From: Gammaproteobacteria bacterium
Lineage (GTDB): Bacteria; Pseudomonadota; Gammaproteobacteria; Eutrophobiales; Eutrophobiaceae
Direction of reading: 5' to 3'
DNA: 58,161 nt
Assembly: GCA_024278135.1 (NCBI GenBank)
Contig: JAJRTU010000113.1
Coordinates: forward strand, 1-58,161
The translations under genes were made by a program, and so were the position numbers. Shown piece after piece: positions 8,826 to 58,161 of the stretch (positions within the stretch are counted from its first letter, which is position 1; every line of letters starts with the position of its first letter). The notes under the pieces were generated by a model. It was not told the origin of the DNA. It saw only the letters and a list, made by a program, of their open reading frames with translations, and did not search any database.

Positions 8826-8835
8826 AACATTCACC

Positions 8836-16208: not shown

Positions 16209-16214
16209 TTCAGG

Positions 16215-17000: not shown

Positions 17001-17014
17001 ATATTTCCCTATAC

Positions 17015-40977: not shown

Positions 40978-41880
40978 TCAGACCTGGTACAGCTGGCCGC
41001 GAATACGCCGACAGGCAGCATGCAACTCCGGAATGTCACTGGCGGGAGGGAGTTCACCCGCTGTCGTCACCAAACACGGCTGAGTACCTGACACGTCCCA
41101 GTCATCCGGTGTTACCGACAGAATTTGTCCCCCCAGGCGCTTGTCGTTCATGACAGGGTTTGAGCAGATGAGCAGATTCCCGGGGGCCAGACCGGAAAAG
41201 GCCTGCACCTGTTCATAGCTCATCTCTGTCGGCAATAACACCGGCAGAGCGTTATAGAAGCGAGTCACATTGACAGCCGGCAACAATGCTGCCGCCCATT
41301 CTTCATATTCCAGCGCTGTGACTTTCTCTTCGACGATGATGATATCGGCACCCGCTTCACCAAAAACACGAACAGCCTCACTCACTATTCTGCCACATTG
41401 TTCCAAATTTACCGCTTCACCCATTTGTGCCGCCAGCGTTGCCGGTCCTGTCACCAGCAACGCAAACAGGACATCATCTGTGACAGTTGTACCCAGACGT
41501 TTCAACACCTCAACACCTGTCCTGATTCTGACATGCGCCCGCAGTTGATCTGCAATATTTTCAGGAATCGCCTGACCGGGTTTGGCCCTGATCTTCGGCG
41601 GGTAGCAAGCCCAGTCCAGTTGCGCGCCAAGCGCCTCTGCCATCGCGCCAGCATCGACAAAACAAAGCATCGCATCGAGATCCAGAGATTGCTGCAGCGC
41701 TGTCAGACATTTTGACAACTTCGTTGCATCACTGAGAAACTCCCGTACTTCAAGGCCTTCAATTTGTGCCGCCACCGTGTGGACTATTGGCATCAGCAGT
41801 GCGTGAGAGGGAGACTCACCACGCTTGACCAGTCTGCGACAACGTCGCCGCGGACTCTCTCGTTTTGACGAAGCACTCAT
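40978..41880 (-). CDS. apcE: Probable acetophenone carboxylase epsilon subunit (URO-D-like fold)
   Basis: 300 aa, fifth gene of the apc-like operon; AEALGA and TGPATLA resemble the URO-D/MtaA family. The assignment is largely positional. Confidence 0.65.
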   Translation of the reverse strand: MSASSKRESPRRRCRRLVKRGESPSHALLMPIVHTVAAQIEGLEVREFLSDATKLSKCLTALQQSLDLDAMLCFVDAGAMAEALGAQLDWACYPPKIRAKPGQAIPENIADQLRAHVRIRTGVEVLKRLGTTVTDDVLFALLVTGPATLAAQMGEAVNLEQCGRIVSEAVRVFGEAGADIIIVEEKVTALEYEEWAAALLPAVNVTRFYNALPVLLPTEMSYEQVQAFSGLAPGNLLICSNPVMNDKRLGGQILSVTPDDWDVSGTQPCLVTTAGELPPASDIPELHAACRRIRGQLYQV

Positions 41881-41896
41881 TCCCCTGTCTGCCGTG

Positions 41897-43957
41897 TCAG
41901 GGGCGCATCAGAGGTACTGTCATTTCGGCATCGGGCCAGCTGCCGTAGTGCTTGAGTATGGCCTCCGGTGGCCTTTTTTTCAGCCACGCGGTTTCAAACT
42001 CATCATAAGGTTTGCCACGGGCAAGTCGATCAGCACAGGTGGCTGAGCGAAGTTCATCCGTTGCCTCAGCATCCACCAGCTCAGTCCCGGCATCAATTAC
42101 CACACGATAGATGTTACGGGCGACCGCCGGGGAAATGGTGCCTTTGTCGATATCGCTGAGTACCGCCTGCGGATCGCGTTCAATCGGATCACCATAGCCG
42201 GTGCCACCGGTTGAGAAGGCAAAGGTAATGATGTCGCCGCACTCATAGGACCGTACACTGCGACCCTGAAATTCAGCGATAAACTCACCCTGAATAGTCT
42301 GATTTTCCAGAATGTCCTGGGTATCCAGACTCAGATTTTCAGCACCCTCGGCCAGCTTGTTCATGATGTCCGGTTTGCGCACACTGATCCCGGGGATGGT
42401 ACAGGGTGCATAGCCTCCGAACAGCGGCTGCGGTGTCTGAATCTTGCTGTTATCCGCAATGGCCATCATGTAGATCTCGGGTACGTGATGCGCCACCCAT
42501 AACTGTGAAGTCCCGACACCGCCACGCAACTTGCCGTGTCCACATGAGTCCTTCCAGTGTTGTGACAGCGGCACCAGTAAGGGAAACTCGTTTTCCACCA
42601 GTTCAACATCCGGCGCCCGCCCGAATACACACCACGGAAAACCGAACGCATCCATACCGTCCATTGTCGGTCGGGCACCCTGACCTTCGGTATTAATGGA
42701 ATAGGCGAGCATATCGGCAAAGGGCATGTCCCACTGCGACAGTCCGGCCAGTACCAGTGCGTTGCCGCCATTTCCCTGCGAGGCACCGGTTTGCTGCCAT
42801 TGCCCCGTGGCAAACATGGCCTTGCCGACACAATTGTGCACGGCACTCATGACACCCGTGGAGATCATCACCGAGTTACTGGTGGCGGCACGCACATCAG
42901 GCGACAAACAGGTATTAGGAGGAAACAGAAAATCGATCCGGGCAAAAGTACCGTTGCTGATGGGAAAATCGTGGAACAGATATTCGTAGATATAATTTGA
43001 AAAGTGACCGATGGCCGCCTGTGGATGTGCATTGTAGGAGGATGCCGTTTCGGGTCCGGTACCGGTAAAATCAACCAGTAAATGATCGTTATCTTTCTCA
43101 ATCGTCATGTAACAGGAACGGATCAGGCCCTGTTCCAGGCCGACAGCATCGGCAAAGGTGACACAACGATATTTACCATCCGGCCACAGCTGAATACGTT
43201 TGCCCGCTCCCTGTTCTGCGGTGATCAGCATCTTGCGAAACAGGCCCTTGATATAATCTGCGCCTTCACGTTCTGCCAGCTCAACCAGACGCCGGCGTAC
43301 CCGATCTGCCGTGGTACAACGGGCCTTCAGATCCACCGTGATCATCTGCGGGGCACGAATACCAAAGGCCGCAAACATTTCTTCTATGTCCGCACGCAGT
43401 TCGAAGTTCTCGCCAATCTTGATCGGCGGCAGGTTCATACCCTCTTCAAAACGTGATTTGGCCGACACCGGCATGCCCCCCGGTTCGGTCGAGCCGGTTT
43501 CGGTCGTGTGTACCAGTGCAACCGTCCAGGCAATGAGTTCACCCTCATGGAAGACCGGCATCGCCACCATCTGGTCCGGGTTGTGAATACCGCCATACAC
43601 GGCATCGTTGCAAAACCACAGATCGCCGTCCCGGATTCCCGGGTTCCCGGCGTAGGTCTGCATGATATATTTGATGATCATCGGCGGAATCACCGCATGC
43701 AGATAGGTACCACAGGAACCGTTCACCATATCACCTGCCGCGGTCATGATCCCCACCAGGGAGTCACCCGCCACCCCCATGGCACTGCGGCAGGAACGCA
43801 CGAAGACCTCCATGCCTTCATCAAGAATATCATTGGTACGTTGAAAACCGATCTCATATTGTCCCAGCCCGATTTTCTCCACACAGGCCAGCTCCTCTGC
43901 CGTGGGTGGCACCGGTTTCAACCACTGCATCTTTTGTTCAATTGTAGGAATAGGCAT
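41897..43957 (-). CDS. apcD: Acetophenone carboxylase subunit (hydantoinase B/oxoprolinase family)
   Basis: MPIPTIEQK..WLKP, EIGFQRTNDILDEG, NDAVYGGIHNPDQ, LVHTTETG and FGFPWCVFGRAP match my recollection of the Aromatoleum ApcD sequence; 686 aa. Confidence 0.88.
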   Translation of the reverse strand: MPIPTIEQKMQWLKPVPPTAEELACVEKIGLGQYEIGFQRTNDILDEGMEVFVRSCRSAMGVAGDSLVGIMTAAGDMVNGSCGTYLHAVIPPMIIKYIMQTYAGNPGIRDGDLWFCNDAVYGGIHNPDQMVAMPVFHEGELIAWTVALVHTTETGSTEPGGMPVSAKSRFEEGMNLPPIKIGENFELRADIEEMFAAFGIRAPQMITVDLKARCTTADRVRRRLVELAEREGADYIKGLFRKMLITAEQGAGKRIQLWPDGKYRCVTFADAVGLEQGLIRSCYMTIEKDNDHLLVDFTGTGPETASSYNAHPQAAIGHFSNYIYEYLFHDFPISNGTFARIDFLFPPNTCLSPDVRAATSNSVMISTGVMSAVHNCVGKAMFATGQWQQTGASQGNGGNALVLAGLSQWDMPFADMLAYSINTEGQGARPTMDGMDAFGFPWCVFGRAPDVELVENEFPLLVPLSQHWKDSCGHGKLRGGVGTSQLWVAHHVPEIYMMAIADNSKIQTPQPLFGGYAPCTIPGISVRKPDIMNKLAEGAENLSLDTQDILENQTIQGEFIAEFQGRSVRSYECGDIITFAFSTGGTGYGDPIERDPQAVLSDIDKGTISPAVARNIYRVVIDAGTELVDAEATDELRSATCADRLARGKPYDEFETAWLKKRPPEAILKHYGSWPDAEMTVPLMRP

Positions 43958-43966
43958 GACTGTTAT

Positions 43967-46234
43967 TTACTCGTTCTCGTTTCCAATGGGGGAAATGGCG
44001 GTTTCATCTTCACTGCGAACACCGGCACGGACTGACACCATTCGACCTGGCTGTACCTGTGCCCCGGTATCTGTTGACGCACCTTCCAGCACACCCAGAC
44101 CATGACAGTCGATGCTAAAGGTCTGACCGGGGGCAACGACGACCGTTGTCAACTCCGCATCGATCACTGCAGGCCCGGTAACCATGTCCCCGGGCAGCAA
44201 TTTGCTGAAATCATAGACAGGCGTCTCGACGAAATTGCCGATTTCGGGCCAGTATGCAGAACGCGTCCCTGTTTGAGCAGCGCCGGCTTCACTATCTCGC
44301 ATCTCCAGTTCAGCCAGCTGATGCCTGGGGGTCGGCACACTCACCCGCAAAATAAAACTGTCGAGATACACCCCTCCCGGTTTGTTGACCACCAGTGGAC
44401 TGAAGGCCTCCGAGAATTCCAGTTCGAAGGCCTCGTAAACCGCCTGTGCATCCTTTTCGGAGTGAATATACAACAATGGCGAGGCCATACGTTTTACATT
44501 CACCTGACCGCCGTAAAGCATGTCCAGTTCCAGTGAGAATTCCGCCTGCTCAAGCGACAGCCCTTCCGAGAGAAGATCCTGTCTGGCACGCTCCACCAGC
44601 GATTCGACGACCTGGTTGAACAGAGTGTACTCGCTAGTCAGTGTTTCGGTGATCGCCTGCATGAACACCATGCGTCGTGATACTTCGTAGAGATGAACGA
44701 TGTCCATCACCGATGCACCCATGGCACAAAATACCGGCGAAGCCGGGAAAATAATGGCTTTGTCAATATCGCCTCTGAACCCGCTCACATGCGTCGGGCC
44801 GGCGCCACCAAAAGCAAACAAAACAAATTCCTCCGGCTTGTATCCGCGCAGGTGAACTTCCCGCTTGATGGCTGACGCCATATTTTGATCCACGACGTGG
44901 CGGATCAGGGCAGCCGCTTCCGCTACGCTGATACCGAGTGGGTCGGCAATACTGACCTTAATGGCCTGCTCAGCTTTCGCTTTATTCAAGGGCATTCGCC
45001 CGCCGAAATAATTTTCGGCACTGAGATAACCGAGTACCAGATCGGCATCGGTCACCGTCGGCTCGACACCCCCGAGGTCGTAGCATACCGGTCCCGGCAT
45101 GGAACCTGCACTCTGTGGTCCAACATCCAGACGCTTGCCCATCAGTGTATTCAATGAAGCAATGGAACCACCGCCTGCGCCGATGGAAATGGTCTGTATC
45201 ATGGTCACACCCACCATCCAGGTATCAATAACCGGTCGGAACTCATAGTTACGGACACTGGATTCAACCACCAGGCCGACATCGAAGCTGGTACCGCCCA
45301 TATCGCAGGCCACCACGTTACTGTAACCGAGCTGGGCAGCGAAATGTACCGCGCCCATCAGTCCGGCCACGGGCCCGCCATTAAAGGTTCGGCATGCCGT
45401 TGTCTTGAACAACTCGGCACTGCCGCCCGAGTTGTGGATCATCAGAAAACTGCCGCTGAACCCCTCGCCACGCACCCTGTCCCAGGTGGCCGACAGTTCT
45501 ATTTGCATGATTTGCTGCAGATAGGCATCCAGTACCGTGGTCATGGTGCGTTCGTATTCTCCTATCTTGGCCACCACCTCGCTGGATAACACCGCCGGCA
45601 GATAACCAATGTGATACTCCTTGTACTCATCACGGATAATTTCTTTGATCCGATGTTCGTGTTCCGGGTTGGCAAAAGACCAGAGCAGTGAAACCACGAT
45701 CACTCTGGCACCCTTATCCACCAGTTTTTGCAACTGGCGGCGAACATCGTTCTCATCCAGGGGGCGAATGACGGTACCGGTGGAATCAATCCTCTCCCTG
45801 ACACCCACGATCATGCTGCGCGAAATCAAAGGCGTAGGTTTGGATTGCACGGCAAGATTGCGTCGTTGTGCCACCCGCTTGCCATCCACCCATTGCGCAC
45901 CACGGCCGATTAGGATGGCATCTTCGTGGCCCTCGGTCGTCATCATGCCGATTCGCGGCCCCAGTCTCTGGATTAAGCGGTTCAGTGCCACCGTGGTGGA
46001 GTAACGAATGATTTTTATTTTTGGCAGTAATCCTGACACATCCAGATCCACCTCATCCGCCGCCTCCTCCACAGCATTCATGAAGCAAATGGATAAATCG
46101 TGTGGTGTGGTGGGTGACTTGACGATGCTACGCTCACCATCCAGCGTCATCACCAGATCACAAAAGGTACCGCCGATATCAACATCAATGGAATTGAGTG
46201 CCCGGATCTCTCCCCTGTCCATCTTACCCGCCAC
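43967..46234 (-). CDS. apcC: Acetophenone carboxylase subunit (hydantoinase A-type ATPase)
   Basis: DVDIGGTFCD, YSTTVALN, FNGGPVAG, DMGGTSFDV, SIGAGGGS, GPVCY, AFGGAGP. Confidence 0.85.
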   Translation of the reverse strand: MAGKMDRGEIRALNSIDVDIGGTFCDLVMTLDGERSIVKSPTTPHDLSICFMNAVEEAADEVDLDVSGLLPKIKIIRYSTTVALNRLIQRLGPRIGMMTTEGHEDAILIGRGAQWVDGKRVAQRRNLAVQSKPTPLISRSMIVGVRERIDSTGTVIRPLDENDVRRQLQKLVDKGARVIVVSLLWSFANPEHEHRIKEIIRDEYKEYHIGYLPAVLSSEVVAKIGEYERTMTTVLDAYLQQIMQIELSATWDRVRGEGFSGSFLMIHNSGGSAELFKTTACRTFNGGPVAGLMGAVHFAAQLGYSNVVACDMGGTSFDVGLVVESSVRNYEFRPVIDTWMVGVTMIQTISIGAGGGSIASLNTLMGKRLDVGPQSAGSMPGPVCYDLGGVEPTVTDADLVLGYLSAENYFGGRMPLNKAKAEQAIKVSIADPLGISVAEAAALIRHVVDQNMASAIKREVHLRGYKPEEFVLFAFGGAGPTHVSGFRGDIDKAIIFPASPVFCAMGASVMDIVHLYEVSRRMVFMQAITETLTSEYTLFNQVVESLVERARQDLLSEGLSLEQAEFSLELDMLYGGQVNVKRMASPLLYIHSEKDAQAVYEAFELEFSEAFSPLVVNKPGGVYLDSFILRVSVPTPRHQLAELEMRDSEAGAAQTGTRSAYWPEIGNFVETPVYDFSKLLPGDMVTGPAVIDAELTTVVVAPGQTFSIDCHGLGVLEGASTDTGAQVQPGRMVSVRAGVRSEDETAISPIGNENE

Positions 46235-46610
46235 CTTCTTCGGCCAGATACAAATGACCCTGTCGGATGATCAGTTCACCCTTGTTCACGCGCGCTTTCA
46301 GCCTGGCGACATCCACTTCAATATCATGGGTGATGGGATGGCCGGGAGGCAGATACTCCGTCTCTATCTGACGCCCGCATTTCGGGCAGTAAAATTCAAG
46401 TATACGCACCCACTCGGGATCGGGAGAAAAAGTATATTCTCCTTCTATTACCGGCTGATGTATCTCGGCGGGATCACGCTCGTAAACCAGGCAACCACGT
46501 TTGTAATTTTCATGGGCCGAAATCAGTTTGTGCCCGCATTGAAAACAATACCAGCATTCATCATCAAGGTTCAGTTGCAGATACTCGGTAAATTGTATTC
46601 TGTCCATCAT
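46224..46610 (-). CDS. apcB: Acetophenone carboxylase small subunit (acetone carboxylase gamma-like, Zn ribbon)
   Basis: WYCFQCG and EFYCPKCG, ETEYLPPGHP; 128 aa. Confidence 0.87.
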   Translation of the reverse strand: MMDRIQFTEYLQLNLDDECWYCFQCGHKLISAHENYKRGCLVYERDPAEIHQPVIEGEYTFSPDPEWVRILEFYCPKCGRQIETEYLPPGHPITHDIEVDVARLKARVNKGELIIRQGHLYLAEEGGG

Positions 46611-46623
46611 TAGCTCTCACATC

Positions 46624-48579
46624 TCAGTGCGATAACAAACCGTTACCGTATTCATCCACTCTCATTTGCCAGCCCTCAGTCACCATGCACGTCAGGTTGT
46701 CACCCGATACAATGGCCGGGCCGATAACCACATTGTTTGCCCGGAGTTTTGTATAATCGTAAATCGGCACTCTGCTGGCAGTTTCATCGAAGAACACCTG
46801 ACGATGATCCATCACGGCATGGTCGGCGTTCGCCTCCCCCTGTTCCAGCAACAGAGGTTCGTAGCTGCTCAGTTTACTTTCAGCCCGTAATCGAAGGATG
46901 CCGCTGCTGATATCGGACAGATCGCTGCCCGACTGTACAGGAACAGGTTCGCCCTCTTCCGGTTCCACTTCAGCATGAAACGTCGCCTCATCCACCTGGA
47001 AGCCCTCAGCTTCCAGATCACGACAGGCCCGCGCGCGTAATGAATCCAGAATCTCTCCGAAGGCAGCGGCAGTATTGGAGTCATTGGCCACAATCCTGTG
47101 CTCGTAGACGTGGGCCACATCGGAGATCGCTGTACCAAAGGCACTGAAGATGGGTCCCAGCGAGAATGAAATATGGACGCGCCGGATATTCAGAATATCC
47201 GCCACCAGCGTCGCCAATAAGGGTCCGTTACCGCCGTAGGCGAACATTTGCAGTGCTTCCAAATCCAGCTTCGCTTCTGCGGCCGTCTTTTTAATCAGCG
47301 TACCAATCAGAACAGCAGTACAGTCACGGGCGAGCAATGCTGCTTTTTCGACACTTAATCCCAGCGGCTCGGCAACATGTCGTGTCATCGCCTCCCGGGC
47401 ACGTTCTGCATCCAGTTTCCGTTGGCCGCCCTGAAAACCTTCAGGATCGATATAAGCCAGTGTGACAAAGCAATCTGTCACTGTTGCTTCGTTCCCCCCC
47501 AGTGCGTAACAGGCCGGCCCGGGAGAGGCACCCATACTTCCCGGACCCACCTGTACTCTCATGGAGGCTTCCGGATCAGACTTGACGATGCTGCCGCCGC
47601 CAATCGCAATGGAACGTAACAACTGCATTGGGGTGGCCAGCGGGATACCGAACAGCTCGCCGTTTTTCTGTTGTACCGGTTTACCCTCACGCACCAGACT
47701 GCATTTTGCCGTTGTACCACCCACGTCCAGACATAACATATTGTCGAAACCGTATTCACGGGCGAAATAGGCACCGGCATACGTGCCGAATATCGGCCCG
47801 GATTCAATCGTGTCAACCGCCTTGGTCTTGCCGATCCGTGCCATACCACCGTTGGTGTGTCCTGCCAGCAGCAGGCCTTTCCAGCCCAGCTCATATTTCA
47901 GGCGGTCTTACGCCTTGAACAGTGATGAGGCCAGTGCCGGATGCACATATGCGTTGATCAGGGCGCAGTGGGTGCGCGTCATATCATCCTCTGTTTGTGC
48001 CATTTCATGACCCAGCAGCACGGGCACCGAACCCATATAATGATCAGGATACTGTTTATGTATGATTTGCTTGATCCGGTTTTCCTGCCCGGGGTCGGTA
48101 AATGAGCCTGCAAAACTTACACAAATCCGACGTACGCCCGCCTCCAGCAATTGGCGGGCAACACCAGGCACGCTCTGATCTGCATCATCACCCGCTGTCA
48201 GTCCAATCACGTTATTCGGATCAATGATCCGGTCCAGAACCGGAGAACGACCTGCACCGTACAGATTTTCTTCTGCGCCGGCGTCGACTAACAGGCCAAG
48301 CGAAGGTCCGCGTTGTTCTGCCAGCGCATTGGAGGTAACGGTCGAAGACCAGCGGATCACATAGACATCAGTCAGAAACGCAGTGACATTTTCATAATTC
48401 AACAGGCCGGCCGCCTGCTGTAACAGCGCCAGCATCGCTACAGTGAGATCGTGGGGAGTGGAGTCGACCTTGATGATCAGTGACATACCCTTACCCAGGA
48501 TCAAGCCGTCGGTCATGGTTCCGCCGGCGTCGATATTGACCGTGTACTTCCCCTCGCCGACAGTATTGCTTGTATGCAT
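46624..48579 (-). pseudogene. apcA: Acetophenone carboxylase subunit (hydantoinase A-type) interrupted by an in-frame TAA at 47908-47910
   Basis: Both track ORFs are in frame: ...ASSLFKA*DRLKYELGWKGLLLAGHTNGGMARIG. Motifs IDAGGTMTD, ESGP, DVGGTT, GPACY and YGGNGP. Joined length is 651 codons from ATG 48579. Confidence 0.82.
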
Positions 48580-48613
48580 GCGCGTAATATAGCGCTTGAA
48601 TTTAATTCCCTCC

Positions 48614-48630
48614 CCTATCTTTCGATAGTG
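48614..48630. promoter_or_regulatory. Palindromic operator CTATC-N4-GATAG in the divergent apcA/TonB receptor promoter
   Basis: CCTATCTTTCGATAGTG, identical to 56770-56786. TATTCT lies 22 nt downstream on + (48651-48656) and TATATT 23 nt away on - (48591-48586). Confidence 0.75.
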
Positions 48631-48774: not shown

Positions 48775-51057
48775 ATGAAGAAATATTATCAACGCGCCAT
48801 TGGTGGACTGCCTTTTCTTGTTCTAATTTTAATAACACTTGCAACAACCCTTGCAAACGGGGCAACACTGGAAGAAGTCGTGGTAACCGCCCAACGACGT
48901 ACTGAGAAATTAAGTGATGTGGGAATTGCAATCGCTGCTTTTGACGGTGACAGGCTGAAACAACAGGGAATGACGACCAGTACCGAGATTGCTTTGTTAA
49001 CACCCGGTATCACACTGTCCGGCACTTATGGCGGCCAAAGTGTTCAGTTCTCCATCCGCGGCGTTACCCAGAGTGACTTTAACGATGCGATTGAGGCTCC
49101 TGTCGCTGTCTATGTCGACGATGTCTATATTGCCTCCCAGCAAGGGCAAAGCATGGCGCTGTTTGATATCGAACGCGTCGAAGCCTTAAAAGGACCACAA
49201 GGCACGCTGTTTGGAAGAAATGCGACCGGCGGACTGGTTCACTTCGTTGTCAAAAAACCGCTTGTTGATAAAGTCAGTGGATATGTAGATGTCGGTTATG
49301 CCACTTTCAACACAAAAAAAATTGAAGCTGGGTTGAATTTACCGCTTGGGGACAAAGTGGCCATGCGTATTTCGGGTATCTGGAACAGTAATGATTCGAT
49401 TTGGGACAATGTTTTTCCTGAAAATTCGTCCGCTGACATATCACCGAGCGGCCAGGATATAGGCGATCAGGAAACGTTTGCCGGGCGTCTGCAGTTTTTG
49501 TATCAGGCGTCTGACACACTTGATTTTCGCCTTTCACTATCGAAGGCTGATCAGAACCTCTCGGAATCTCCCTGGACATCTCTCGGTGCTACCGTCGGAA
49601 CCGATGGATCGGGGCGAGTAATCGGCTCGGAATTCACCCCGGCCACCGTTTTTGGTTATGTGCCGGTCAGCATTGATGATCGTAAAGTTTCAAAGGATTT
49701 TGCATTGAGTGATCTGAATCGGTTTGACACTGATGGCGCCACACTGCACATCAATAAGGAATGGAATCAAGTCAGTCTTGCCTCTGTCACTTCTTACGCG
49801 AATTATGAAAAGACCTTTATGCTTGATGTGGATTCCTCTCCTGTCAATTTCAGCGCCTTTGGCAATGTGTCCGATACCGAAACGTTCTCTCAGGAAATCA
49901 GGCTCAGTGGTGCCGGTGACAGCCTTTCCTGGACCGTAGGTCTCTACTATCTGGATATCACTGCAAAAAACGCGCACGGTATCCTCGGGCCAAGAGGTTC
50001 GATATTTGCCGGCTTGTTTGGCCTCGGTGCAAGCGGGGTCGATCCTCTTGCAGTGTTCAAACTGAAGACAAAATCAACATCCGTTTTTGGCCAGGCATCC
50101 TATGATTTTACATCCGAATGGCGGCTTGTTGCGGGCGTGCGTGTTATTTATGAAAAGCAGGATTATGATTATTTCACGGCACTTTTCCAGAACCTTGATG
50201 ATTACACAGTGGATGCCGATGCACCGATACTTTCTATGGGGCCACACCCGGCCTTTAACGACAGGCGTTCGGACTATTTATGGGCAGGCAAATTCCAGTT
50301 GGAATTTCGACCAAGTGACAGCATGTTGATTTATCTGGGGCTGAATCGTGGTGTTAAAGGTGGCAGCTATACCGGACAATATTTTGATGGTACTGCAGCG
50401 CTCAGTCCGTCCGAAATTCCCTATGATCCGGAGACGCTGATATCCCTGGAAGGCGGATTCAAATATACCGATCCCGACAATCTTTACGCGATTAATATGG
50501 CGATGTTTTACTATGATTACGCTGACTACCAGTCATTTCTTTTTTCCACTTTATCGGGCAGCGTGGAGAATTACGATGCGAACTCGATTGGTGTCGAATT
50601 TGATGCCAGCGTAAATATTGGCAGTGGTTTTCGTCTTACTGCGACAGGGGCATATATTAATGCGGAAGTCGAAGATTTCGTCATTGCCCCGGGGATAATT
50701 ACCAATACCGAACCTACCTATACGCCGGAATTCTCTGCAGGTTTGCGCCTGAACTATTCAGTATACGATGTGCTGGGAGGTGATCTTGATACAGGGGTAT
50801 CCGTCAATTACCAATCGAAGATTTTTCACAATGCCAGAAACTTCAATGCCAGTGTGATTCCCGGTCGTACAGTGACTGGCCTCTATGCGAACTTTCTTTT
50901 CAAAGGAGGCAGGTACAGCATTGGCGCGTACGCCAGGAATGTCTTCGATGAGCGTTATGCTGTTGTCGGACTGGATTTATCACAGGCCTGCGGTTGTAAC
51001 CTGGAGGCTTATGGCCAGCCTCGGACTCTGGGTATTCAGGCAGGTTATCGTTTTTAA
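48775..51057 (+). CDS. TonB-dependent outer membrane receptor
   Basis: Signal peptide, LEEVVVTAQRR, IRG, VAVYVDDVY, ERVEALKGPQGTLFGRNATGG, NVFDERY, C-terminal YRF. Confidence 0.95.
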   Translation: MKKYYQRAIGGLPFLVLILITLATTLANGATLEEVVVTAQRRTEKLSDVGIAIAAFDGDRLKQQGMTTSTEIALLTPGITLSGTYGGQSVQFSIRGVTQSDFNDAIEAPVAVYVDDVYIASQQGQSMALFDIERVEALKGPQGTLFGRNATGGLVHFVVKKPLVDKVSGYVDVGYATFNTKKIEAGLNLPLGDKVAMRISGIWNSNDSIWDNVFPENSSADISPSGQDIGDQETFAGRLQFLYQASDTLDFRLSLSKADQNLSESPWTSLGATVGTDGSGRVIGSEFTPATVFGYVPVSIDDRKVSKDFALSDLNRFDTDGATLHINKEWNQVSLASVTSYANYEKTFMLDVDSSPVNFSAFGNVSDTETFSQEIRLSGAGDSLSWTVGLYYLDITAKNAHGILGPRGSIFAGLFGLGASGVDPLAVFKLKTKSTSVFGQASYDFTSEWRLVAGVRVIYEKQDYDYFTALFQNLDDYTVDADAPILSMGPHPAFNDRRSDYLWAGKFQLEFRPSDSMLIYLGLNRGVKGGSYTGQYFDGTAALSPSEIPYDPETLISLEGGFKYTDPDNLYAINMAMFYYDYADYQSFLFSTLSGSVENYDANSIGVEFDASVNIGSGFRLTATGAYINAEVEDFVIAPGIITNTEPTYTPEFSAGLRLNYSVYDVLGGDLDTGVSVNYQSKIFHNARNFNASVIPGRTVTGLYANFLFKGGRYSIGAYARNVFDERYAVVGLDLSQACGCNLEAYGQPRTLGIQAGYRF

Positions 51058-51366
51058 AGTCTATAGCACTCTGTGCTATGCAGGGGCAGGTAAACTTGTC
51101 GTTTTAGCTCCTGATGCTCCTGGTATTTTAATTTGCCGGCCTGATCCAGTAAGACGAAGAGCGGAATTTTCTTATCACTGGTAAAGAAAAGACACACCTT
51201 CACAGGAATGACACCAACGCAGCAAACTGCGGGGAGTAGTGGCGCAAGGACGCACCGTTAACGAAGCTAAGGATGCAATTAAACCCAAATAGATTAGCAA
51301 TGAGTATGATTACCTTTTACAGAGGTTTATCACGCTTCCGGCAAGCAAATCAGCTGGAATATTACC

Positions 51367-53307
51367 ATGGGATGGAGCGAGCTGATGGATGATTACCCAA
51401 AGAAAAATATGTCCTGCTTTGATTCCTGGACAGTGCTCTTTCGCATCGTTTTCATGAGTTTCCTCGTGGGAGTAGCGCCGATCTCCAGCAGTGCCGAACA
51501 AGTATCGGAAATTTTCGGTGCCAACGCGTTGTCGGCCGGCGCAAGCCTGTTTCGCGAAAGATGCCTTGCCTGTCACGGTCTCGGGGTTTTCATCCCGACG
51601 GTTGCCGGTCTGGCAAATCTGTCTCGGGACAGGATATACAAAACCATGCGCATCGGGATCATGCGGGATCCCGCCTCGGGACTGAATAATGATCAATTAG
51701 GTGCCATTGCAGACTACATAACGAGCCTCAGATCAAATCAACCATTAACTTCCGCACGACCATCACAAGCCAGCCTTTGTAAGCAGGCATTGCCCCTGGT
51801 AAAAGGTACTTCAGGCGAATGGACAGGCTGGGCGCCGGATAATACAAATACCCGCTTCCTGAGTGATAACAAATCAGGTTCAAAGCAGGTACGCGGTCTG
51901 CAACTGAAATGGGCATTCGTATTTCCGGATACCGCCACGACACTGTCCAGTGAGAATCAGCCGACGGTCTCCAACGGCCGACTCTATATCAGCAGTCGCG
52001 CCGGTATCGTTTATGCGCTGGATGCCGAGAGTGGCTGTATCCACTGGTCCTTTGAGGCCGCTGCCGGTATTCGTTCCGCGATCGTCGTTACCGGCAAGAA
52101 GATCGTATTCGGGGATTTCCAGGCGGCTGTTTATGCTCTCGATGCAAACAACGGCGAGTTAATTTGGAAGAAGACTGTCGATTATCAGGCAACGGCACGG
52201 GTGAGCGGAAATATAACTGTTTATGCAGACAGGGTATTCGTTCCAGTTTCGGGCATGCAGGAGACTTACGGAGCTCACAAGAAGCTTCCCTGCTGTCTGT
52301 TCAGGGGTAGTGTGGTTGCCCTCGATCTGGGTACCGGACAACAGATCTGGAAGACCTACATGATCGATACCTCCCCCACCGAGATCGGTACAACGATATT
52401 GGGGATTAAGCGCTACGGTCCTTCCGGCGTTGCGGTGTGGTCGGTCCCAACCATCGACGCCAGGCGTAATTTGCTCTACATCAGTACTGGCAACCAGTAC
52501 ACAGAACCTGTCGTTGAGGAATCGGATGCCATTGTGGCACTCAATCTTGAAACCGGTAAAAAACATTGGGTCAAAAACTTTGCGCCCGAGCACATGAACA
52601 ATCAGGATATCTATCACTTCGGTTGTGAGGTCTGGGTGGACGATACAAGATCAACCTGCTCGCCACTCAACCCGAAAGGACAGGGTGATCGTGAATTCGG
52701 CGCACCAGTGGTATTAACTGCGCTGGCCGACGGCTCAGATATACTGCTGGCCGGATCCAAAGACGGTATGTTGTACGCACTCGATCCTGATCGGAACGGT
52801 GAACTTATCTGGAAAAAACGGCTGGGGCGTGGCGGAGAACTGGGTGGTATTCAGTTTGGCTTTGCCACAGACGGCACACGGGCCTTTATTCCTATCGCCG
52901 ATGTCAACGCGGACTTCAAGGCAGATGGTGCTCTGATATCCCTGGAAGTGAAAAGCGGCAAGATTATTTGGCGTGTACCCGCGCCAGGAGATACTTGTGT
53001 TGGCAAACCGATGCCCTGCAATAACGCACTAACGGCCGCGGTCACATTAACTCCGCATATCGTATTTACCGGATCAATAGATGGTTACCTGAGGGCCTAC
53101 AATACCCGCAATGGACAATTGATATGGGAGTACGATACGACACAGATGGTGGAAGGTGTGAACGGATTGCGGGGTCACGGCGGATCAATCGGGACTGCGG
53201 GTCCGACAATTATTGATAATATGCTTTATCAGACATCGGGCTATGCAGGGATTCTGGCTGGAATGCCCGGCAATGTCCTGTTGGCTTTCGAGTTCCCACC
53301 TGAATAA
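51367..53307 (+). CDS. PQQ-dependent quinohaemoprotein dehydrogenase with N-terminal cytochrome c (PVA-dehydrogenase-like architecture)
   Basis: CLACHG haem motif, LKWAFVFP, repeated ALDAxxGxxxW propeller motifs, CCLFRGSVVALD, STGNQY, GNVLLAF. Start uncertain. Confidence 0.87.
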   Translation: MGWSELMDDYPKKNMSCFDSWTVLFRIVFMSFLVGVAPISSSAEQVSEIFGANALSAGASLFRERCLACHGLGVFIPTVAGLANLSRDRIYKTMRIGIMRDPASGLNNDQLGAIADYITSLRSNQPLTSARPSQASLCKQALPLVKGTSGEWTGWAPDNTNTRFLSDNKSGSKQVRGLQLKWAFVFPDTATTLSSENQPTVSNGRLYISSRAGIVYALDAESGCIHWSFEAAAGIRSAIVVTGKKIVFGDFQAAVYALDANNGELIWKKTVDYQATARVSGNITVYADRVFVPVSGMQETYGAHKKLPCCLFRGSVVALDLGTGQQIWKTYMIDTSPTEIGTTILGIKRYGPSGVAVWSVPTIDARRNLLYISTGNQYTEPVVEESDAIVALNLETGKKHWVKNFAPEHMNNQDIYHFGCEVWVDDTRSTCSPLNPKGQGDREFGAPVVLTALADGSDILLAGSKDGMLYALDPDRNGELIWKKRLGRGGELGGIQFGFATDGTRAFIPIADVNADFKADGALISLEVKSGKIIWRVPAPGDTCVGKPMPCNNALTAAVTLTPHIVFTGSIDGYLRAYNTRNGQLIWEYDTTQMVEGVNGLRGHGGSIGTAGPTIIDNMLYQTSGYAGILAGMPGNVLLAFEFPPE

Positions 53308-53388
53308 GCCGTTATGTAAAAGCCCAAATGAGCGATCAATTGAAGACAAATTTATCCCGATAACAACCAGGTATGAGGGAGTAAAGAA

Positions 53389-53787
53389 TTGAACAGCAAA
53401 ATACAGACAATGAACATTAACGAGAGCATAGAGAAAGGATATGGTTTTTCCGCTGCGGCCCGTGCGGGCGATACGCTGTATATCGGCGGACTGGTGAGTT
53501 GGGATGAGCAGGGAGAAGTTGTCGGACCCAACGATGCGAAGGCCCAGGCCAATAACATCTACGGCCAGATCAGGAAAATCCTGGCTGCACACGATGCCTC
53601 CTTCAACAACGTGGCAAGTGAAACCATTTACATTACCGATTGGGAGGCGGCAGAACCTGCTTTTGAAGTTCGTAACCGGTACTACGAAGCAGATGGGACA
53701 AGCTATCCATCTGCAGCCGCCATCCAGGTCACGTCACTGGTCAAAGAAGGCCTGCTCATCGAAGTACAGATGGTTGCACATCTTTAG
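53389..53787 (+). CDS. Rid (YjgF/YER057c/UK114) family protein
   Basis: FSAAARAGDTLYIGG, YPSAAAIQVTSL...LIEVQ; GAGGGAG RBS. The catalytic Arg of true RidA is not evident. Confidence 0.85.
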   Translation: MNSKIQTMNINESIEKGYGFSAAARAGDTLYIGGLVSWDEQGEVVGPNDAKAQANNIYGQIRKILAAHDASFNNVASETIYITDWEAAEPAFEVRNRYYEADGTSYPSAAAIQVTSLVKEGLLIEVQMVAHL

Positions 53788-53893
53788 CTGTTAACTTGAA
53801 TCTGACCGTTGATATCTTTAATCAAATCACTTGCAATGATCTGCTCAATCACGATCTTCCACCGGCCGGTACAGTATTACAAACCAATAACGC

Positions 53894-56641
53894 TCAGCGG
53901 ATAAAACCCAGATCCCGTGCACGCTGTACAACCAGGGCACGACGACGTATTCCCACTTTGTCGTAGATTTGTTGTAAGTGCCATTTCACTGAACCTTCCG
54001 TCAAACTCAGCGAGTCCGCGATTTCCCGGTTCAGCAGTCCGTGCGCCACCAACTGCAGAATTTCCCTTTCCCGCTCACTGATGGGCTCAGCGGGTAAATC
54101 TGACAGCGCTGTGTCTACACACGAAGATGAAATTGGAATTTTACCGCCGCATTCAACTGCAATGATTTCAAGCAGCCTGGTGGCGAGCGTCAATGCCGGA
54201 TCGTCCATTGTGTGTTGTCCCTGCACAAATCGGCTGAGCAGGATTAGGCTGTTTTCCATTTCGTCAACAATAGTCCGGATGAACCCACCCGGTATCGCGG
54301 CCATCAGCGCATGGCGTAAAGCCCGCATAGACGCACGTGACTCACCCGACTCATGCAATATATGCGCAAGCAGTACATTAAACTGTATTTCCGTTCTGAC
54401 GGCATTTCTCTTCCTGGCAAAACGGATCCATTTACTACACACGAGTGAGGCCGCATCCAGCAGACCTTCTGCCCTTGCAAGTCGACACCAGATAAGTGCC
54501 CTTGTGGCATTGCAACGAGTCGCACGATACCCCGGATAAAGACTATCGGCCTGAGTATGTCTGAACAGATCTTGAAACATGCGCCTGGCGATTTTGGAAT
54601 CGCCTGTTATGAAGGCCTGACGGGCCAGTTCCGCATCGATATTTATACCAAATCGCTCGAAACCTCGCTTGATACCCAGCTCCTCTGCTTTTTTCAGAAC
54701 ACGTTTGGATTCCTTGTCGTCACCGGCGGCGATCAGAAGACGTGCCCGACAGATATACCCCGCAATCAGCTGATCTACAAAGCCGATCCGGTCTGCCAGC
54801 GGCAGGTATTGCTCCAGTAAACGTTCCGCCTCATCAAGTTGATGACGTTCGTAGAATACTTCCCCCAGCAGTATTCCGGGCATGGCCGCCAGTGGAGACA
54901 GTTCGCCGCTGATTTCAGACGCTATTGAACGCGCCAGCACAAGCGACTCCTCAGCCCTGTCGAGCTTACCCCGTTCAAGCTCGGTCGGCCCGAGAATCGA
55001 ATAGTGCCATATCAGGACGAAACGACTGTTCGCCTCCTCATAGAGCCGCAAAGACAGCGCATCAAATCTGTTCACATTGCTGAAGTCGAACATCTCCCGT
55101 TGGGCATAGATGCGGCAGGTGTACAGGTTGCCTCTGAGATAAGGATCCGCTCCGGGAAAATCGTCCAGCATTTCCGCGCTTAAACGTTCTACCGGCGGCA
55201 TATCATCGCTGAACAATGCGTACATCATCTCTCGATGCTTCAGCATGGAACGGAGAAAGACAAGTTCAGATCCTGAATCGTTCCTTGCCGCCTTTTCCTT
55301 CAATATCACACCCACATCGTCAAGCATCCGGCGGGCAAGCGCAAATTTCCATTCAAGAATGATCGACCATGCCTGGTCAAGAAGAATCCTGGGATAGTGG
55401 CGCAGATACGCTTCGGGAATCTGTTTATACCACTCTGACAGAGTACTCAGACGGCCGCTGTAGAAGAGATCATCACAGGCCTCATTAAGGAGTCCGGCAG
55501 CTCTTTCCATATCCTTTCCCGCCATTGCATGCTGGATGGCTTCGTCGACGCATCCCTGCCTGGCAAACCATTCGCTGGCACGTATGTGGAGCTGCCCGAC
55601 ATGATCCGAATTTTCAGCATGGTAATGTTTTCTCAGAAATTCTGAAAATAAATGGTGATAGCGATACCATTCTCTTTCACTATCAAGCGAGAAAAGAAAT
55701 AAACCTCTCGATTCGAGAATATCCAGCATACGACGACCATTATCGGCAGCCCTTATTTCGTCGCACAGCGAGGGGCACAGACGTTCCAGAATGGATGTTT
55801 GCAGCAAGAATTCGCGCGTTTCCTTATCCTGGCGCTGCAACACATCTTCAGCCAAAAAGTCTGCCACCTCCCTGTGGTTGCCGGAAAATGCCTCGATAAA
55901 CTCTTCCACATCATCGCGGTTTGAAAGAGAAATCGAGGCCAGTTGCAGACCTGCAGCCCAACCTTCAGTATGTTTTTCCAGGGCATGGAGCTGAGCCGCA
56001 GACAGCCCTGTGTGACCGGCCAAAGACAGGAAAGACCCGGTTTCCAGACCACGAAAACGGAGTTCATCACTCGTTATTTCCACCACCCTGCCAAGGGCAC
56101 GCAGCCTGCCCAGAGGCAGTTGCGGTGTCTCACGACTGACAACAAGTAAACGCAGATTGGCCGGGGCCTTGTCAATAATCAAACCCATTGCATCAATAAT
56201 ATCGGTGTTGTTAAGCAGATGAAAATCATCCAGGACAATATTGACCCGCCTGTCCAACATGGCAATTTCATTGAGAAATGCACCGCTCAACGAAGCGGAA
56301 ACCAGTCGAACACCTGCTTTCAACTGGCCAAGAACAGTGGCGCCGAAATCCTTCACCTGCATGCGCAGGCTCGCAACGAGATAAGTGAAGAATCGACCGG
56401 GATCGTTGTCTGCCGCATCAAGACTGTACCAGGCACCGAGATCAGTACCGGGTGCAAGGGCGGCTAACCACTGGCCTGCCAGCGTGGTCTTGCCGTAACC
56501 GGCGGGGGCCCTGACTAAAATGACGCTGCGATCGAGCGAGCTGGAGAGCCGGAGCAGAAGACGATCTCGAGCGACAAGACCGGAGTCTCTGACAGGCGGA
56601 ATGAGTTTGGTGCGGATAACTACCGGATCACCGTTGACCAT
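53894..56641 (-). CDS. MalT-like (LAL) ATP-dependent LuxR-family transcriptional regulator
   Basis: RTKLIPP, APAGYGKT, VLDDFH, TEGWAAGL, WYRYHHLF, C-terminal HTH (ISEREREIL...NREIA...VKWHL). Confidence 0.94.
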   Translation of the reverse strand: MVNGDPVVIRTKLIPPVRDSGLVARDRLLLRLSSSLDRSVILVRAPAGYGKTTLAGQWLAALAPGTDLGAWYSLDAADNDPGRFFTYLVASLRMQVKDFGATVLGQLKAGVRLVSASLSGAFLNEIAMLDRRVNIVLDDFHLLNNTDIIDAMGLIIDKAPANLRLLVVSRETPQLPLGRLRALGRVVEITSDELRFRGLETGSFLSLAGHTGLSAAQLHALEKHTEGWAAGLQLASISLSNRDDVEEFIEAFSGNHREVADFLAEDVLQRQDKETREFLLQTSILERLCPSLCDEIRAADNGRRMLDILESRGLFLFSLDSEREWYRYHHLFSEFLRKHYHAENSDHVGQLHIRASEWFARQGCVDEAIQHAMAGKDMERAAGLLNEACDDLFYSGRLSTLSEWYKQIPEAYLRHYPRILLDQAWSIILEWKFALARRMLDDVGVILKEKAARNDSGSELVFLRSMLKHREMMYALFSDDMPPVERLSAEMLDDFPGADPYLRGNLYTCRIYAQREMFDFSNVNRFDALSLRLYEEANSRFVLIWHYSILGPTELERGKLDRAEESLVLARSIASEISGELSPLAAMPGILLGEVFYERHQLDEAERLLEQYLPLADRIGFVDQLIAGYICRARLLIAAGDDKESKRVLKKAEELGIKRGFERFGINIDAELARQAFITGDSKIARRMFQDLFRHTQADSLYPGYRATRCNATRALIWCRLARAEGLLDAASLVCSKWIRFARKRNAVRTEIQFNVLLAHILHESGESRASMRALRHALMAAIPGGFIRTIVDEMENSLILLSRFVQGQHTMDDPALTLATRLLEIIAVECGGKIPISSSCVDTALSDLPAEPISEREREILQLVAHGLLNREIADSLSLTEGSVKWHLQQIYDKVGIRRRALVVQRARDLGFIR

Positions 56642-56769
56642 GAATATTTCACTTGCTCTAAAGAATCACTGTTAAGCCGGGCGCCTGTTTTTATCAAGAA
56701 ACACTCTGGTGTCAATCCGAATGGAAGTATACAGTCAAGATTGGCCTGCAGAAGTTACACTGTCATATA

Positions 56770-56786
56770 CCTATCTTTCGATAGTG
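56770..56786. promoter_or_regulatory. Second copy of the CTATC-N4-GATAG operator, upstream of the aminotransferase
   Basis: CCTATCTTTCGATAGTG, with TAGAAT (56807-56812) 22 nt after the palindrome, the same spacing as in the first copy. Confidence 0.75.
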
Positions 56787-56911
56787 TTTCCGCCCATACC
56801 TTTGTTTAGAATATAAATTCGATGTTACGATAAATCTGTATATACGTCTATTTTCAACGCTGCCGACCAATGAATGACTGTTAACAACGACCAACTATCT
56901 GGATATCTCCC

Positions 56912-58161
56912 ATGACCAGGATTACACTCGAGAACGCTACCCGATCCTTTAAGGAAAAATTTCAAAAATCCGCTGAACTTCGCGAGTCCGGCAGTCAGTA
57001 CATCCCCGGCGGCTACAGTCGAAACAGCCTCACATTCGGCCCGCATGCCATTTATGTGGAGCGGGGAGAAGGGCAGTATATCTATTCTGTCGAGGGTGAA
57101 TGTTTACTGGACTTCCATAACAACTTCAGTTGCAGCATCACCGGTCACAACCACCCGAAGATCCGCGAAGCAATACAGGAGTTGATGCCCAAAGGGTTCT
57201 CGTTCGGCAATCCGATGGCACATGAACACCGTCTGGCACAAATCCTGTGTGAGCGAATTGAGGCGGTCGAAAAAGTTATTTTTTCCTGTTCCGCCAGCGA
57301 GTCCGCATTGAGTGCCATCCGCATCGCACGCGCCAATACCGGTAAAAACAAAATTGCAAAATTCGAAGGCGGCTACCATGGCCTCGGTGATGAGTTCATG
57401 ATGTCTCTACACCCTTTCACCGAACAATTCCCGGGGCCGGCCACCCATCCGATCCCGATACCGAATACGGCGGGGATCCCCCGGCACACACAGCAAAATG
57501 TAATCGTACTGCCGCAAAACGATCTGGAAAGCTGTGAACGGATACTCCGGGCCAATGCTTGCGAGCTGGCCGGAGTCATCATGGAGTTGCAGACCGGTGC
57601 AGGCGGAGTGATTGTTCTGAACAAAGATTTTGTACAGGGTATTCGGGCGCTGACACAAGAGCTCGGAATTCTTATGATTATCGATGAAACCATTACCTTG
57701 CGTGCCGGATATCACGGTATGCAAGGTTTATACGATATCAGACCGGATCTGGTCGTTCTTGGAAAAATTATCGGCGGTGGTCTGCCGATAGGTGCTGTCG
57801 CCGGGTGGGCAAAATACTTCGAAATGGGCGATCAGGGACTCGTTTATCACTCGGGAACCCACCACGGTCATCCACTGGCCACGATCGCCGGCACTGCCTG
57901 TATGGAAATCATGGATGAGAAGACCTATACACGGCTGAATGGATATGCCGCGAAAATAAAGAATGAACTGACGAAATGGGCCGACGACAACAGCTATCCG
58001 TTCAGCATCTATGGCATCGGATCGCATCTGGGCTATGAATTCACCGACAAACCCGGTCGGGTTTATACCTCCTGCCGTGACATGCTCATGTATTCAAACG
58101 AGGAATATATGCAGACATTCGCGTTTGAGATGGCTAACCGGGGGATCTTTCCGATGTATCG
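56912..58161 (+). CDS. Class III PLP aminotransferase (HemL/GSA-aminomutase-like clade), 3' end beyond window
   Basis: Not in the ORF track. Hand translation: MTRITLENA...YIPGGYSR, LDFHNNF...GHNHP, KFEGGYHG, IIDETIT, PDLVVLGKIIGGGLPIGA, HSGTHHGHP. Confidence 0.92.
   Translation, partial: MTRITLENATRSFKEKFQKSAELRESGSQYIPGGYSRNSLTFGPHAIYVERGEGQYIYSVEGECLLDFHNNFSCSITGHNHPKIREAIQELMPKGFSFGNPMAHEHRLAQILCERIEAVEKVIFSCSASESALSAIRIARANTGKNKIAKFEGGYHGLGDEFMMSLHPFTEQFPGPATHPIPIPNTAGIPRHTQQNVIVLPQNDLESCERILRANACELAGVIMELQTGAGGVIVLNKDFVQGIRALTQELGILMIIDETITLRAGYHGMQGLYDIRPDLVVLGKIIGGGLPIGAVAGWAKYFEMGDQGLVYHSGTHHGHPLATIAGTACMEIMDEKTYTRLNGYAAKIKNELTKWADDNSYPFSIYGIGSHLGYEFTDKPGRVYTSCRDMLMYSNEEYMQTFAFEMANRGIFPMY

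Follow-up and report, generated by a model that had tools for sequence, protein, structure and literature searches.

The DNA analysed here (the window, 58,161 bases) is the entire contig C35 of a gammaproteobacterial assembly of 360 contigs and 3.74 Mb (genome G000; 88% complete, 5.6% contaminated). Towards its right end it carries an acetophenone carboxylase (Apc)-like operon, apcABCDE, divergent from genes for a TonB-dependent receptor, a cytochrome c/pyrroloquinoline quinone (PQQ) protein and a Rid-family protein, followed by genes for a MalT-like regulator and a class III aminotransferase. Genes were identified from a listing of open reading frames (ORFs) together with Pfam and NCBIfam scans, and every gene of this set that an earlier note on the same DNA had reported was present as placed. 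Two copies of one palindromic operator were found in the two divergent intergenic regions, and the module recurred in a congener and in metagenome contigs. With a confidence slightly better than even, the locus is read as one MalT-like-regulated regulon that would feed an aryl methyl ketone into ATP-dependent Apc carboxylation and on to benzoyl-CoA. The ketone pathway itself is known, and it is the regulatory and feeder context that would be new; no description of this gene context was found in the covered parts of the literature on acetophenone carboxylase.

In the proposed order of steps, the MalT-like activator would bind the palindrome at the apcA promoter and between the regulator and aminotransferase genes, and the substrate would be taken up via the TonB-dependent receptor. 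A secondary (aryl)alcohol would be oxidized in the periplasm by the haem-c/PQQ dehydrogenase, and an aminotransferase of the beta/omega-amino-acid type would act in the cytoplasm. Apc would then convert acetophenone or a close aryl methyl ketone, with bicarbonate and at the expense of ATP, into benzoylacetate; a coenzyme A (CoA) ligase and a thiolase, both encoded elsewhere, would activate and cleave this product for entry into the aerobic benzoyl-CoA (Box) pathway of the same genome.

The carboxylase and the Apc branch

All five apc genes lie on the minus strand: apcA (Apc alpha', about 651 codons, 46624-48579), apcB (small Zn-ribbon subunit, 128 aa, 46224-46610), apcC (Apc alpha, 755 aa, 43967-46234), apcD (Apc beta, hydantoinase-B type, 686 aa, 41897-43957) and apcE (Apc epsilon-like subunit, 300 aa, 40978-41880). 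They comprise two HyuA-type paralogues, a HyuB-type subunit, a Zn-ribbon subunit and an epsilon subunit, in the order described in the available text of PMC5214803. NCBIfam Apc models were the top match for all five genes (for ApcD, 1250.9 bits against 170.5 for caprolactamase beta; for apcE, AcphenoCarb_ApcE with 130.4 bits over the full length), and apcB was also recognized by Pfam Acetone_carb_G. Against PDB, ApcD matched chain 5L9W_A of the Aromatoleum acetophenone carboxylase with 1162 bits, compared with 179 for acetone carboxylase alpha and 132 for hydantoinase. The corresponding values were 1138 bits (5L9W_B) against 332 (acetone carboxylase beta) for ApcC, and 196.7 bits (5L9W_C) against 39 (acetone carboxylase) for ApcB, while the sole PDB match of ApcE was the Aromatoleum Apc epsilon subunit 9FOU (E 1.1e-26, aligned 11-296). 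The subunits therefore group with Aromatoleum Apc (5L9W, 9FOU), as the earlier note had supposed, and not with hydantoinases, lactamases or acetone carboxylase. At the positions named in the structure paper (PMC5214803, in the part available), the predicted acetophenone pocket of Apc alpha was kept at 7/7 residues (L81, F281, N282, P285, I333, Q344, T345), the beta-subunit metal ligands at 4/4 (D65, H123, D126, H148, with ApcD aligned to 5L9W) and the small-subunit cysteines at 4/4 in ApcB (Cys22, 25, 75, 78). At least 120 protein clusters shared at least 70% identity with ApcD; the identity between the window and Aromatoleum ApcD was roughly 71-72%, an estimate from equal-scoring matches.

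The epsilon subunit matters for this assignment, because a five-subunit Apc homologue of Rhodococcus aetherivorans (Acr) carboxylates acetone and longer aliphatic ketones, not acetophenone, and because epsilon subunits separate Apc from such acetone-carboxylating homologues (PMC13677872, 2026, available part). Acr resembles the window operon in its five-subunit Apc-like architecture and its occurrence in an aerobe, and it shows that Apc-like operons need not use acetophenone. It differs in that its epsilon subunit has no detectable identity with Apc epsilon (section 2.6 of the same paper), whereas that of the window matches Apc epsilon, and in that Acr operons are followed by acetoacetate-converting genes, none of which was seen at the window locus. 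As far as can be judged from sequence, the carboxylase is a genuine Apc-branch type.

The closest described system is apc-bal of Aromatoleum aromaticum EbN1 (5L9W core, 9FOU epsilon), with which the locus shares five genes in equal order, the top PDB and NCBIfam matches, the Zn-ribbon cysteines, the beta metal ligands and the predicted acetophenone pocket. In Aromatoleum bal follows apcE, whereas the window apcE has no bal beside it. According to the available text of PMC4729919, Aromatoleum also has an ethylbenzene dehydrogenase, an NAD-dependent phenylethanol dehydrogenase and an adjacent AdiRS-type two-component system; the window locus has instead the MalT-like regulator with its palindromic operator, and differs further in a stop codon in apcA and in scores below cut-off. 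The gene context is thus unlike the apc-bal/ebd-ped/two-component arrangement, as had been claimed. No AMP-binding ligase, thiolase or molybdopterin enzyme was present in the window ORFs scanned. The statement of the earlier note that there are no two-component genes held near apc but not for the window as a whole, since hybrid kinases and response regulators occur at 13716-27245, at least 13.7 kb away.

Elsewhere in the genome (G000:C68, L033, 470-8859) a further Apc-type pair was observed that is more distantly related (ApcC model 634 bits, ApcD model 408 bits). After it come an ORF of 154 aa, a protein with a thiolase domain and one more TonB-dependent receptor.

A shared operator, its putative regulator and the recurrence of the module

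The 17-mer CCTATCTTTCGATAGTG occurs at 48614-48630, in the divergent region between apcA and the receptor gene, where it consists of the palindrome CTATCTTTCGATAG plus flanks, and again at 56770-56786, central in the divergent region between the regulator and aminotransferase genes. These were exactly the two copies in the 3.74-Mb assembly; at up to three mismatches the window held 2 matches, against 0.17 expected. Its 14-mer palindromic core, CTATC-TTTC-GATAG, likewise had only two perfect copies among the 360 contigs, both at the apc locus. Copy 1 precedes the furthest upstream of the plausible apcA starts by 35 nt and is 146 nt away from the receptor ATG; for copy 2 the distances are 129 nt to the ATG of the regulator gene and 127 nt to that of the aminotransferase gene.

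Conservation of the core extended beyond the assembly. The 14-mer was invariant at six sites (two in the window and one each in the congener G003 and the metagenome contigs L055, L058 and L059) while its flanks diverged. In the apcA/receptor intergenic region of G003, 21 bases were identical, that is, the 14-mer plus TGCATAT; in L055 and L058 the perfect 14-mer stood about 100 nt upstream of aminotransferase orthologues, and in L059 it had a regulator orthologue (57%) on one side and an aminotransferase remnant on the other. When five relatives were searched with the pattern, the sole perfect copy was that of the homologous locus of G003, and one-mismatch sites elsewhere were at control level. 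A one-mismatch copy was found 60 nt upstream of a Zn-dependent alcohol dehydrogenase (ADH) gene in G022, which belongs to another genus of the same family. The shared operator proposed in the earlier note is borne out by its two sites, one ahead of apcA and one separating the genes for the regulator and the aminotransferase, and by the conservation of the 14-bp palindrome in the congener and the metagenome contigs.

Further one-mismatch copies were considered as regulon members and rejected. The copy on G000:C83 lies inside an ORF, and chance matches in the genome were estimated at about 0.6; the copy CTATCTTTCGATAT at position 7345 of G000:C206 (L075) is likewise at about the estimated chance level; and the sites in G004 equalled the reversed-pattern control in number. 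The site on G000:C206 is placed between divergent genes for a TonB-dependent receptor and a pyridoxal-phosphate-dependent decarboxylase.

The regulator gene (53894-56641, minus strand) encodes 915 aa of the large ATP-binding LuxR-family type, with Pfam matches to TPR_MalT (103 bits) and GerE (47 bits), a weak match to AAA_22 and a Walker-A-like GYGKT. It resembles E. coli MalT and other large ATP-binding LuxR-family proteins in length class, P-loop, MalT-type TPR region and C-terminal GerE helix-turn-helix. It is not a MalT equivalog (NCBIfam NF003420, 404 bits against a cut-off of 537), the window operator is unlike the MalT box, GGA(T/G)GA, and the regulated genes are unrelated to maltose. 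Regulator orthologues adjoin apcA or the operator in G003, G022 and L059, and the regulator was held in 4/4 of the operator contexts long enough to show it (G000, G003, G022, L059). LuxR-type helix-turn-helix dimers bind palindromes. For these two reasons the palindrome was assigned to the MalT-like regulator, which probably binds CTATCTTTCGATAG as a dimer.

The synteny check suggested in the earlier note gave a positive result, as the module recurred in G003 and in metagenome contigs. On G003:C407 (L046), apcA stands divergently from a receptor gene, after which come genes whose products are 80% (PQQ protein), 82% (Rid-like protein) and 69% (regulator, truncated at the contig end) identical to those of the window; the ApcD (70%) and ApcE of G003 are on a separate short contig. 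In G022 a regulator orthologue (47%) was found adjoining the Zn-dependent ADH gene, together with a FadB-like gene, an amidohydrolase gene and an apcA-like gene, and in L055 and L058 an aminotransferase orthologue (76-78%) is accompanied by the operator and by a remnant of apcA. In these two contigs (L055 3-1000, L058 56-1656) the apcA-like gene is truncated (358 aa in L058) and continues into an ORF of 175 aa with a CobW_C domain only. In L059 the aminotransferase remnant (3220-4251, 54 residues matched) adjoins an rve integrase gene, and an insertion element seems to have disrupted it.

The copies in the two congeners have diverged unevenly. The receptors at the equal position (window 48775-51057, L046 1465-3897) were 31.6% identical, and yet the 5' leaders of their genes were conserved; the receptor appears to have been swapped. 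In a quick maximum-likelihood tree the ApcD of G003 fell in a different well-supported clade from that of the window. This tree contained every second listed homologue (60/120), 18 locus proteins, the partial G003 protein, which has a long branch, and one outgroup; there was no Aromatoleum-named row among the 120 homologues listed, so that the tree gives relative placement only. Between the operator and the present apcA of G003, which belongs to another lineage, a decayed 5' remnant of about 60 codons of a window-type apcA was found (L046 1237-1434, minus strand), which looks like the scar of one apc cassette replaced by another behind the same promoter. In this genus, the operator and the genes for the regulator, PQQ protein and Rid-like protein therefore form the stable core of the module, with carboxylase and receptor alleles having been exchanged.

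Proposed feeder enzymes and outlet to benzoyl-CoA

The receptor gene (48775-51057, plus strand, 760 aa; Pfam Plug and TonB_dep_Rec_b-barrel) translates to a protein with a signal peptide and a C-terminal Phe, and reached no specific NCBIfam equivalog. It is followed on the same strand by the gene for the putatively periplasmic cytochrome c and PQQ beta-propeller protein (51367-53307), in which Pfam Cytochrome_CBB3 (54-118) precedes PQQ repeats, with one CLACH motif and a signal-peptide-like N-terminus. Homologues 42-80% identical to this protein are named polyvinyl alcohol dehydrogenase (cytochrome) by automatic JGI annotation. Judged by these names, the likeness to that enzyme lies in an N-terminal haem-c domain, then a PQQ propeller, and a predicted periplasmic location; no gene for an oxidized-polyvinyl-alcohol hydrolase was seen at the window locus. 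The methanol/ethanol PQQ-dehydrogenase model gave 119.6 bits against a cut-off of 480, and no polyvinyl alcohol dehydrogenase chain was among the PDB matches. The pairing of dehydrogenase and aminotransferase is not unique to the window, since paralogues of the PQQ protein (47-51%) directly follow a class I/II aminotransferase gene in L047 (G004:C6) and L049 (G003:C192). Near these paralogues, genes were also observed for molybdopterin and Fe-S oxidoreductases, a TetR protein, a MalT-like regulator and receptors, as well as a UbiD-type decarboxylase gene and methylamine-dehydrogenase-like genes. The third gene of the plus-strand set encodes the Rid/YjgF-family protein (53389-53787, Pfam Ribonuc_L-PSP; NCBIfam RutC 55 bits, cut-off 169).

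The class III aminotransferase gene (56912-58161, plus strand, Pfam Aminotran_3) runs off the contig end, so that the last 33 or so codons are missing; the L055 orthologue is full length at 449 aa, and in L057 a receptor gene comes after the aminotransferase gene. No overlap of the right end of the window with any other contig of the assembly was found when 20-141 terminal bases were compared. The protein belongs to the group of glutamate-1-semialdehyde aminomutases (GSAMs) and beta-transaminases. It is not HemL (hemL model 295.8 bits against a cut-off of 527.3), and the true hemL of the genome is on C217 (618 bits). Its best PDB match was 6K8H (228.9 bits), followed by GSAMs and then ForI; the beta-phenylalanine aminotransferases and beta-transaminases 4AO9, 2YKU and 6IZ9 scored 153-163 bits, followed by D-phenylglycine aminotransferase, and PDB entries titled plain 'TRANSAMINASE' (5G09, 5G2P) scored about 79 bits. 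In the available text of PMC10589169, 6K8H is an omega-transaminase of Sphaerobacter (StoTA) active on aromatic beta-amino acids. Its proposed carboxylate binder, R36 in PGGNTR, has an equally spaced counterpart in the window protein (R37 in PGGYSR); the true HemL reads PGGVNSPVR, and the window protein has a three-residue deletion there. At the four motif positions of PMC9850050 (available part), R41 was kept, Val43 was replaced by Ser, Glu75 by Asn, as in StoTA, and Tyr76 by Phe. The best solved relatives are thus StoTA (6K8H), the beta-phenylalanine aminotransferase of Variovorax paradoxus (4AO9) and the beta-transaminase of Mesorhizobium (2YKU). The window protein has in common with these relatives how PGG-x-x-R is spaced, the context GKIIGGG of the catalytic Lys and the presence of an aromatic residue behind the Asn, and it departs from them in its moderate similarity (229 bits to 6K8H) and in the Ser and Asn at motif positions Val43 and Glu75.

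Since the carboxylate-binding Arg is kept and the relatives act on beta-amino acids, the substrate would carry a carboxylate and would not be 1-phenylethylamine. The earlier suggestion of a transaminase converting 1-phenylethylamine to acetophenone is therefore not upheld. The step from an alcohol to the ketone gained support from ADHs of three unrelated kinds that neighbour apc or apcA-like genes in different lineages: besides the PQQ protein of the window and the Zn-dependent ADH of G022, a type II quinohaemoprotein ADH stands, with a Rieske oxygenase, divergent from apcA in L001, the closest apc locus elsewhere (ApcD 80%).

Annotation of the flanks of apc loci in other genomes (12 of 20 loci, 134 ORFs) showed mainly genes for CoA ligases and thiolases (L002, L004, L006, L009, L016, L019, L020). 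The ligases are PaaK-like or FadD-like, accompanied by thiolases and not by acetoacetate enzymes, and this fits benzoylacetate activation and cleavage. Both pqqC (362.6 bits) and boxB (836.4 bits) were present in the genome with scores above cut-off, less than 2 kb apart on the 9.3-kb contig G000:C297 (4058-8005). As boxB encodes a component of the aerobic benzoyl-CoA oxygenase, the genome would have an outlet for benzoyl-CoA from the pathway.

Counter-evidence, rival readings and wider meaning

Several observations weigh against one functional regulon. Every subunit scored below its curated NCBIfam equivalog cut-off (ApcD 1250.9/1500, ApcC 1240/1500, ApcB 222/250, ApcE 130.4/450, and 267.9 and 403.4 bits against 1250 for the two ApcA pieces). 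The two pieces arise because apcA consists of two ORFs in one frame, split by a TAA at 47908-47910 and covering ApcA profile positions 2-212 and 236-527. According to the available text of PMC5214803, Apc alpha' is a nucleotide-binding subunit for which bicarbonate activation has been proposed, so that the truncation, if real, should inactivate the enzyme. Among the putative feeder enzymes, the polyvinyl-alcohol-dehydrogenase-like protein, for which oxidation of a secondary alcohol is a proposed role, takes its name from automatic JGI annotation, and the Rid-like protein has PSA in place of PAR in 3/3 alignments with solved relatives (PH0854, RutC and a RidA protein). The arginine of P-A-R is required for RidA activity; its replacement by Ala makes a role as a RidA-type imine deaminase doubtful, and with it the proposed handling of imines. 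Nor is the gene set widely kept together. Searches of 40 relatives and of 399 further genomes of the class gave no aminotransferase orthologue, G003 (84% complete), which has the rest of the module, being among the genomes without one, and the receptors of the two congeners have diverged as described above. Within 10 kb of 20 apc loci of other genomes, no homologue of the receptor, Rid protein, regulator or aminotransferase was found (E <= 1e-10, coverage > 0.5), and a PQQ-type homologue was near apc at 1/20 loci, with 22% identity. No benzoylacetate-CoA ligase is linked to the operon in the window. The best ligase and thiolase candidates, which lie on contig C58 and are 44% and 55-60% identical, respectively, to their apc-linked counterparts, were not accepted as the missing bal and thiolase, because they belong to a separate caprolactamase-like/mutase operon with no perfect operator, and they stay candidates. 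That operon (L029/L030) was seen to contain a caprolactamase-like alpha/beta pair, a methylmalonyl-CoA-mutase-like protein with MeaB, two CoA ligases, an acyl-CoA dehydrogenase and a thiolase. Finally, scans for promoters (10 sites, 18.4 expected) and terminators (16 sites, 14.5 expected) gave nothing above chance.

These points bear differently on the alternatives. In the main rival, which is unlikely but has chemical logic, the locus degrades a beta-aryl-beta-amino acid such as beta-phenylalanine: the transaminase would produce benzoylacetate, which would spontaneously decay to acetophenone, Apc would carboxylate this ketone again and so prevent a loss of carbon, and the PQQ protein and receptor would act on a precursor. 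The ranking of PDB matches headed by 6K8H, the activity of that enzyme on aromatic beta-amino acids, the arginine spacing that HemL lacks, the state of the motif positions (Arg kept, Phe in place of Tyr, an Asn matching StoTA), and the operator upstream of the aminotransferase in four contigs are all in its favour. In Paraburkholderia, transamination of beta-phenylalanine gives 3-oxo-3-phenylpropanoate and, by spontaneous decarboxylation, acetophenone (PMC6150868, available part), and because this transamination product is also the Apc product, the aminotransferase and Apc are chemically linked. Strains BS115 and PsJN thus resemble the proposed route in that a transaminase makes a beta-keto acid decaying to acetophenone, but there the acetophenone is excreted, and in the text available its removal by an oxygenase or reductase is discussed and no carboxylase is described. 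Against this route, the window protein fails to match 2/4 motif positions (Val43 and Glu75 as numbered in Variovorax), the aminotransferase gene is rare and was not found in G003, enzymes of the GSAM-like group differ widely in specificity (D-phenylglycine aminotransferase, ForI), and the periplasmic dehydrogenase would be left without an obvious role. An extension of it that we regard as improbable would make Apc a carbon-salvage enzyme in the catabolism of beta-aryl-beta-amino acids or of precursors imported by the receptor, with volatile acetophenone carboxylated again, the product trapped by a CoA ligase and the ketone sensed by the MalT-type regulator acting at the one palindromic operator; no mention of a ketone carboxylase undoing a spontaneous decarboxylation was found in the covered parts of the literature.

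The carboxylase could instead act on another ketone, aliphatic (acetone, butanone or longer methyl ketones) or ring-substituted, within a module degrading a non-aromatic polyol or amino-alcohol, in which case the name Apc would be misleading. The preference of the Rhodococcus homologue for aliphatic ketones, the sub-cut-off scores of all subunits and the naming of the dehydrogenase family after polyvinyl alcohol would agree with this. So would the statements, in the available text of PMC5214803, that the substrate sites of Apc, acetone carboxylase (Acx) and hydantoinase (Hyd) are not separable by consensus sequence and that only one Apc-branch enzyme has been characterized. It nevertheless seems rather improbable in view of the pairwise match of the epsilon subunit to Aromatoleum Apc epsilon (E 1e-26), which the Rhodococcus epsilon lacks (PMC13677872, available part), the acetophenone-pocket residues kept at 7/7, the PaaK-/FadD-like ligases and thiolases, in place of acetoacetate enzymes, at related loci, and boxB in the genome. 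Least probable is a decaying or mosaic locus with neighbours brought together by accidental gene flux, in which the operator serves only the regulator and one promoter and apc is, in the strain of the assembly, a recent pseudogene to which no pathway belongs. The in-frame stop, the apcA remnants joined to a CobW_C fragment, the aminotransferase remnant beside the integrase gene, the swapped carboxylase and receptor alleles of G003 with the apcA remnant left behind, and the lack of a linked ligase or thiolase fit such decay. But aligned relatives have Glu (7/8) or Asp (1/8) at the stop position, inside a conserved LFKAED segment, and in both assembled contigs of public runs that cover the site (X1 and X4, among four runs compared; the site lies outside the coverage of X2 and X3) plus-strand position 47910 is C, giving GAA. 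These populations are 98-99% identical to the window (X1 with depth 8.3 and 19 differences in 1843 bases, X4 with depth 3.2), and the stop is therefore specific to the strain of the assembly or an error; owing to this nonsense codon the carboxylase may be inactive in that strain. The ATP-binding motifs flanking the stop are intact (apcA keeps DxGGT, DVGGT and PGP), the remaining four apc genes have uninterrupted reading frames and are highly conserved, the invariance of the operator across diverged contexts argues for selection, and the fact that one apc lineage took the place of another behind the same promoter suggests that the function was kept. The regulon that would feed an aryl methyl ketone into Apc is thus retained as the favoured reading.

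The remaining genes of the window are unrelated and include signalling proteins, nucleoside catabolism and a DUF3604 pair, while modABC is convergent with apcE. The two adjacent DUF3604 proteins (4879-8879, about 650 bits each) stand beside a HupE/UreJ-type membrane protein. Five signalling genes lie in a row on the minus strand (13716-27245) and encode two large PAS-rich hybrid histidine kinases, a double-receiver protein and two receiver-PAS-GGDEF-EAL proteins. At its left end (1-141) the window is identical to contig C143, from base 31501 of the latter, over 55 bases or more, 55 being the longest stretch compared; as this match starts 141 bases before the end of C143, the two contigs probably adjoin.

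Aromatoleum acetophenone carboxylase serves anaerobic ethylbenzene degradation. The locus described here places an Apc-branch enzyme in an aerobic-type marine gammaproteobacterium, with close relatives in hydrothermal-vent metagenomes, and provides a defined candidate operator and regulator that could be made into a sensor. Two new feeder reactions are suggested, periplasmic quinohaemoprotein oxidation and beta-amino-acid transamination, and the congener appears to have swapped one apc lineage for another at the same promoter. If the beta-amino-acid link is true, it would explain the fate of the acetophenone that is otherwise lost by beta-phenylalanine degraders.

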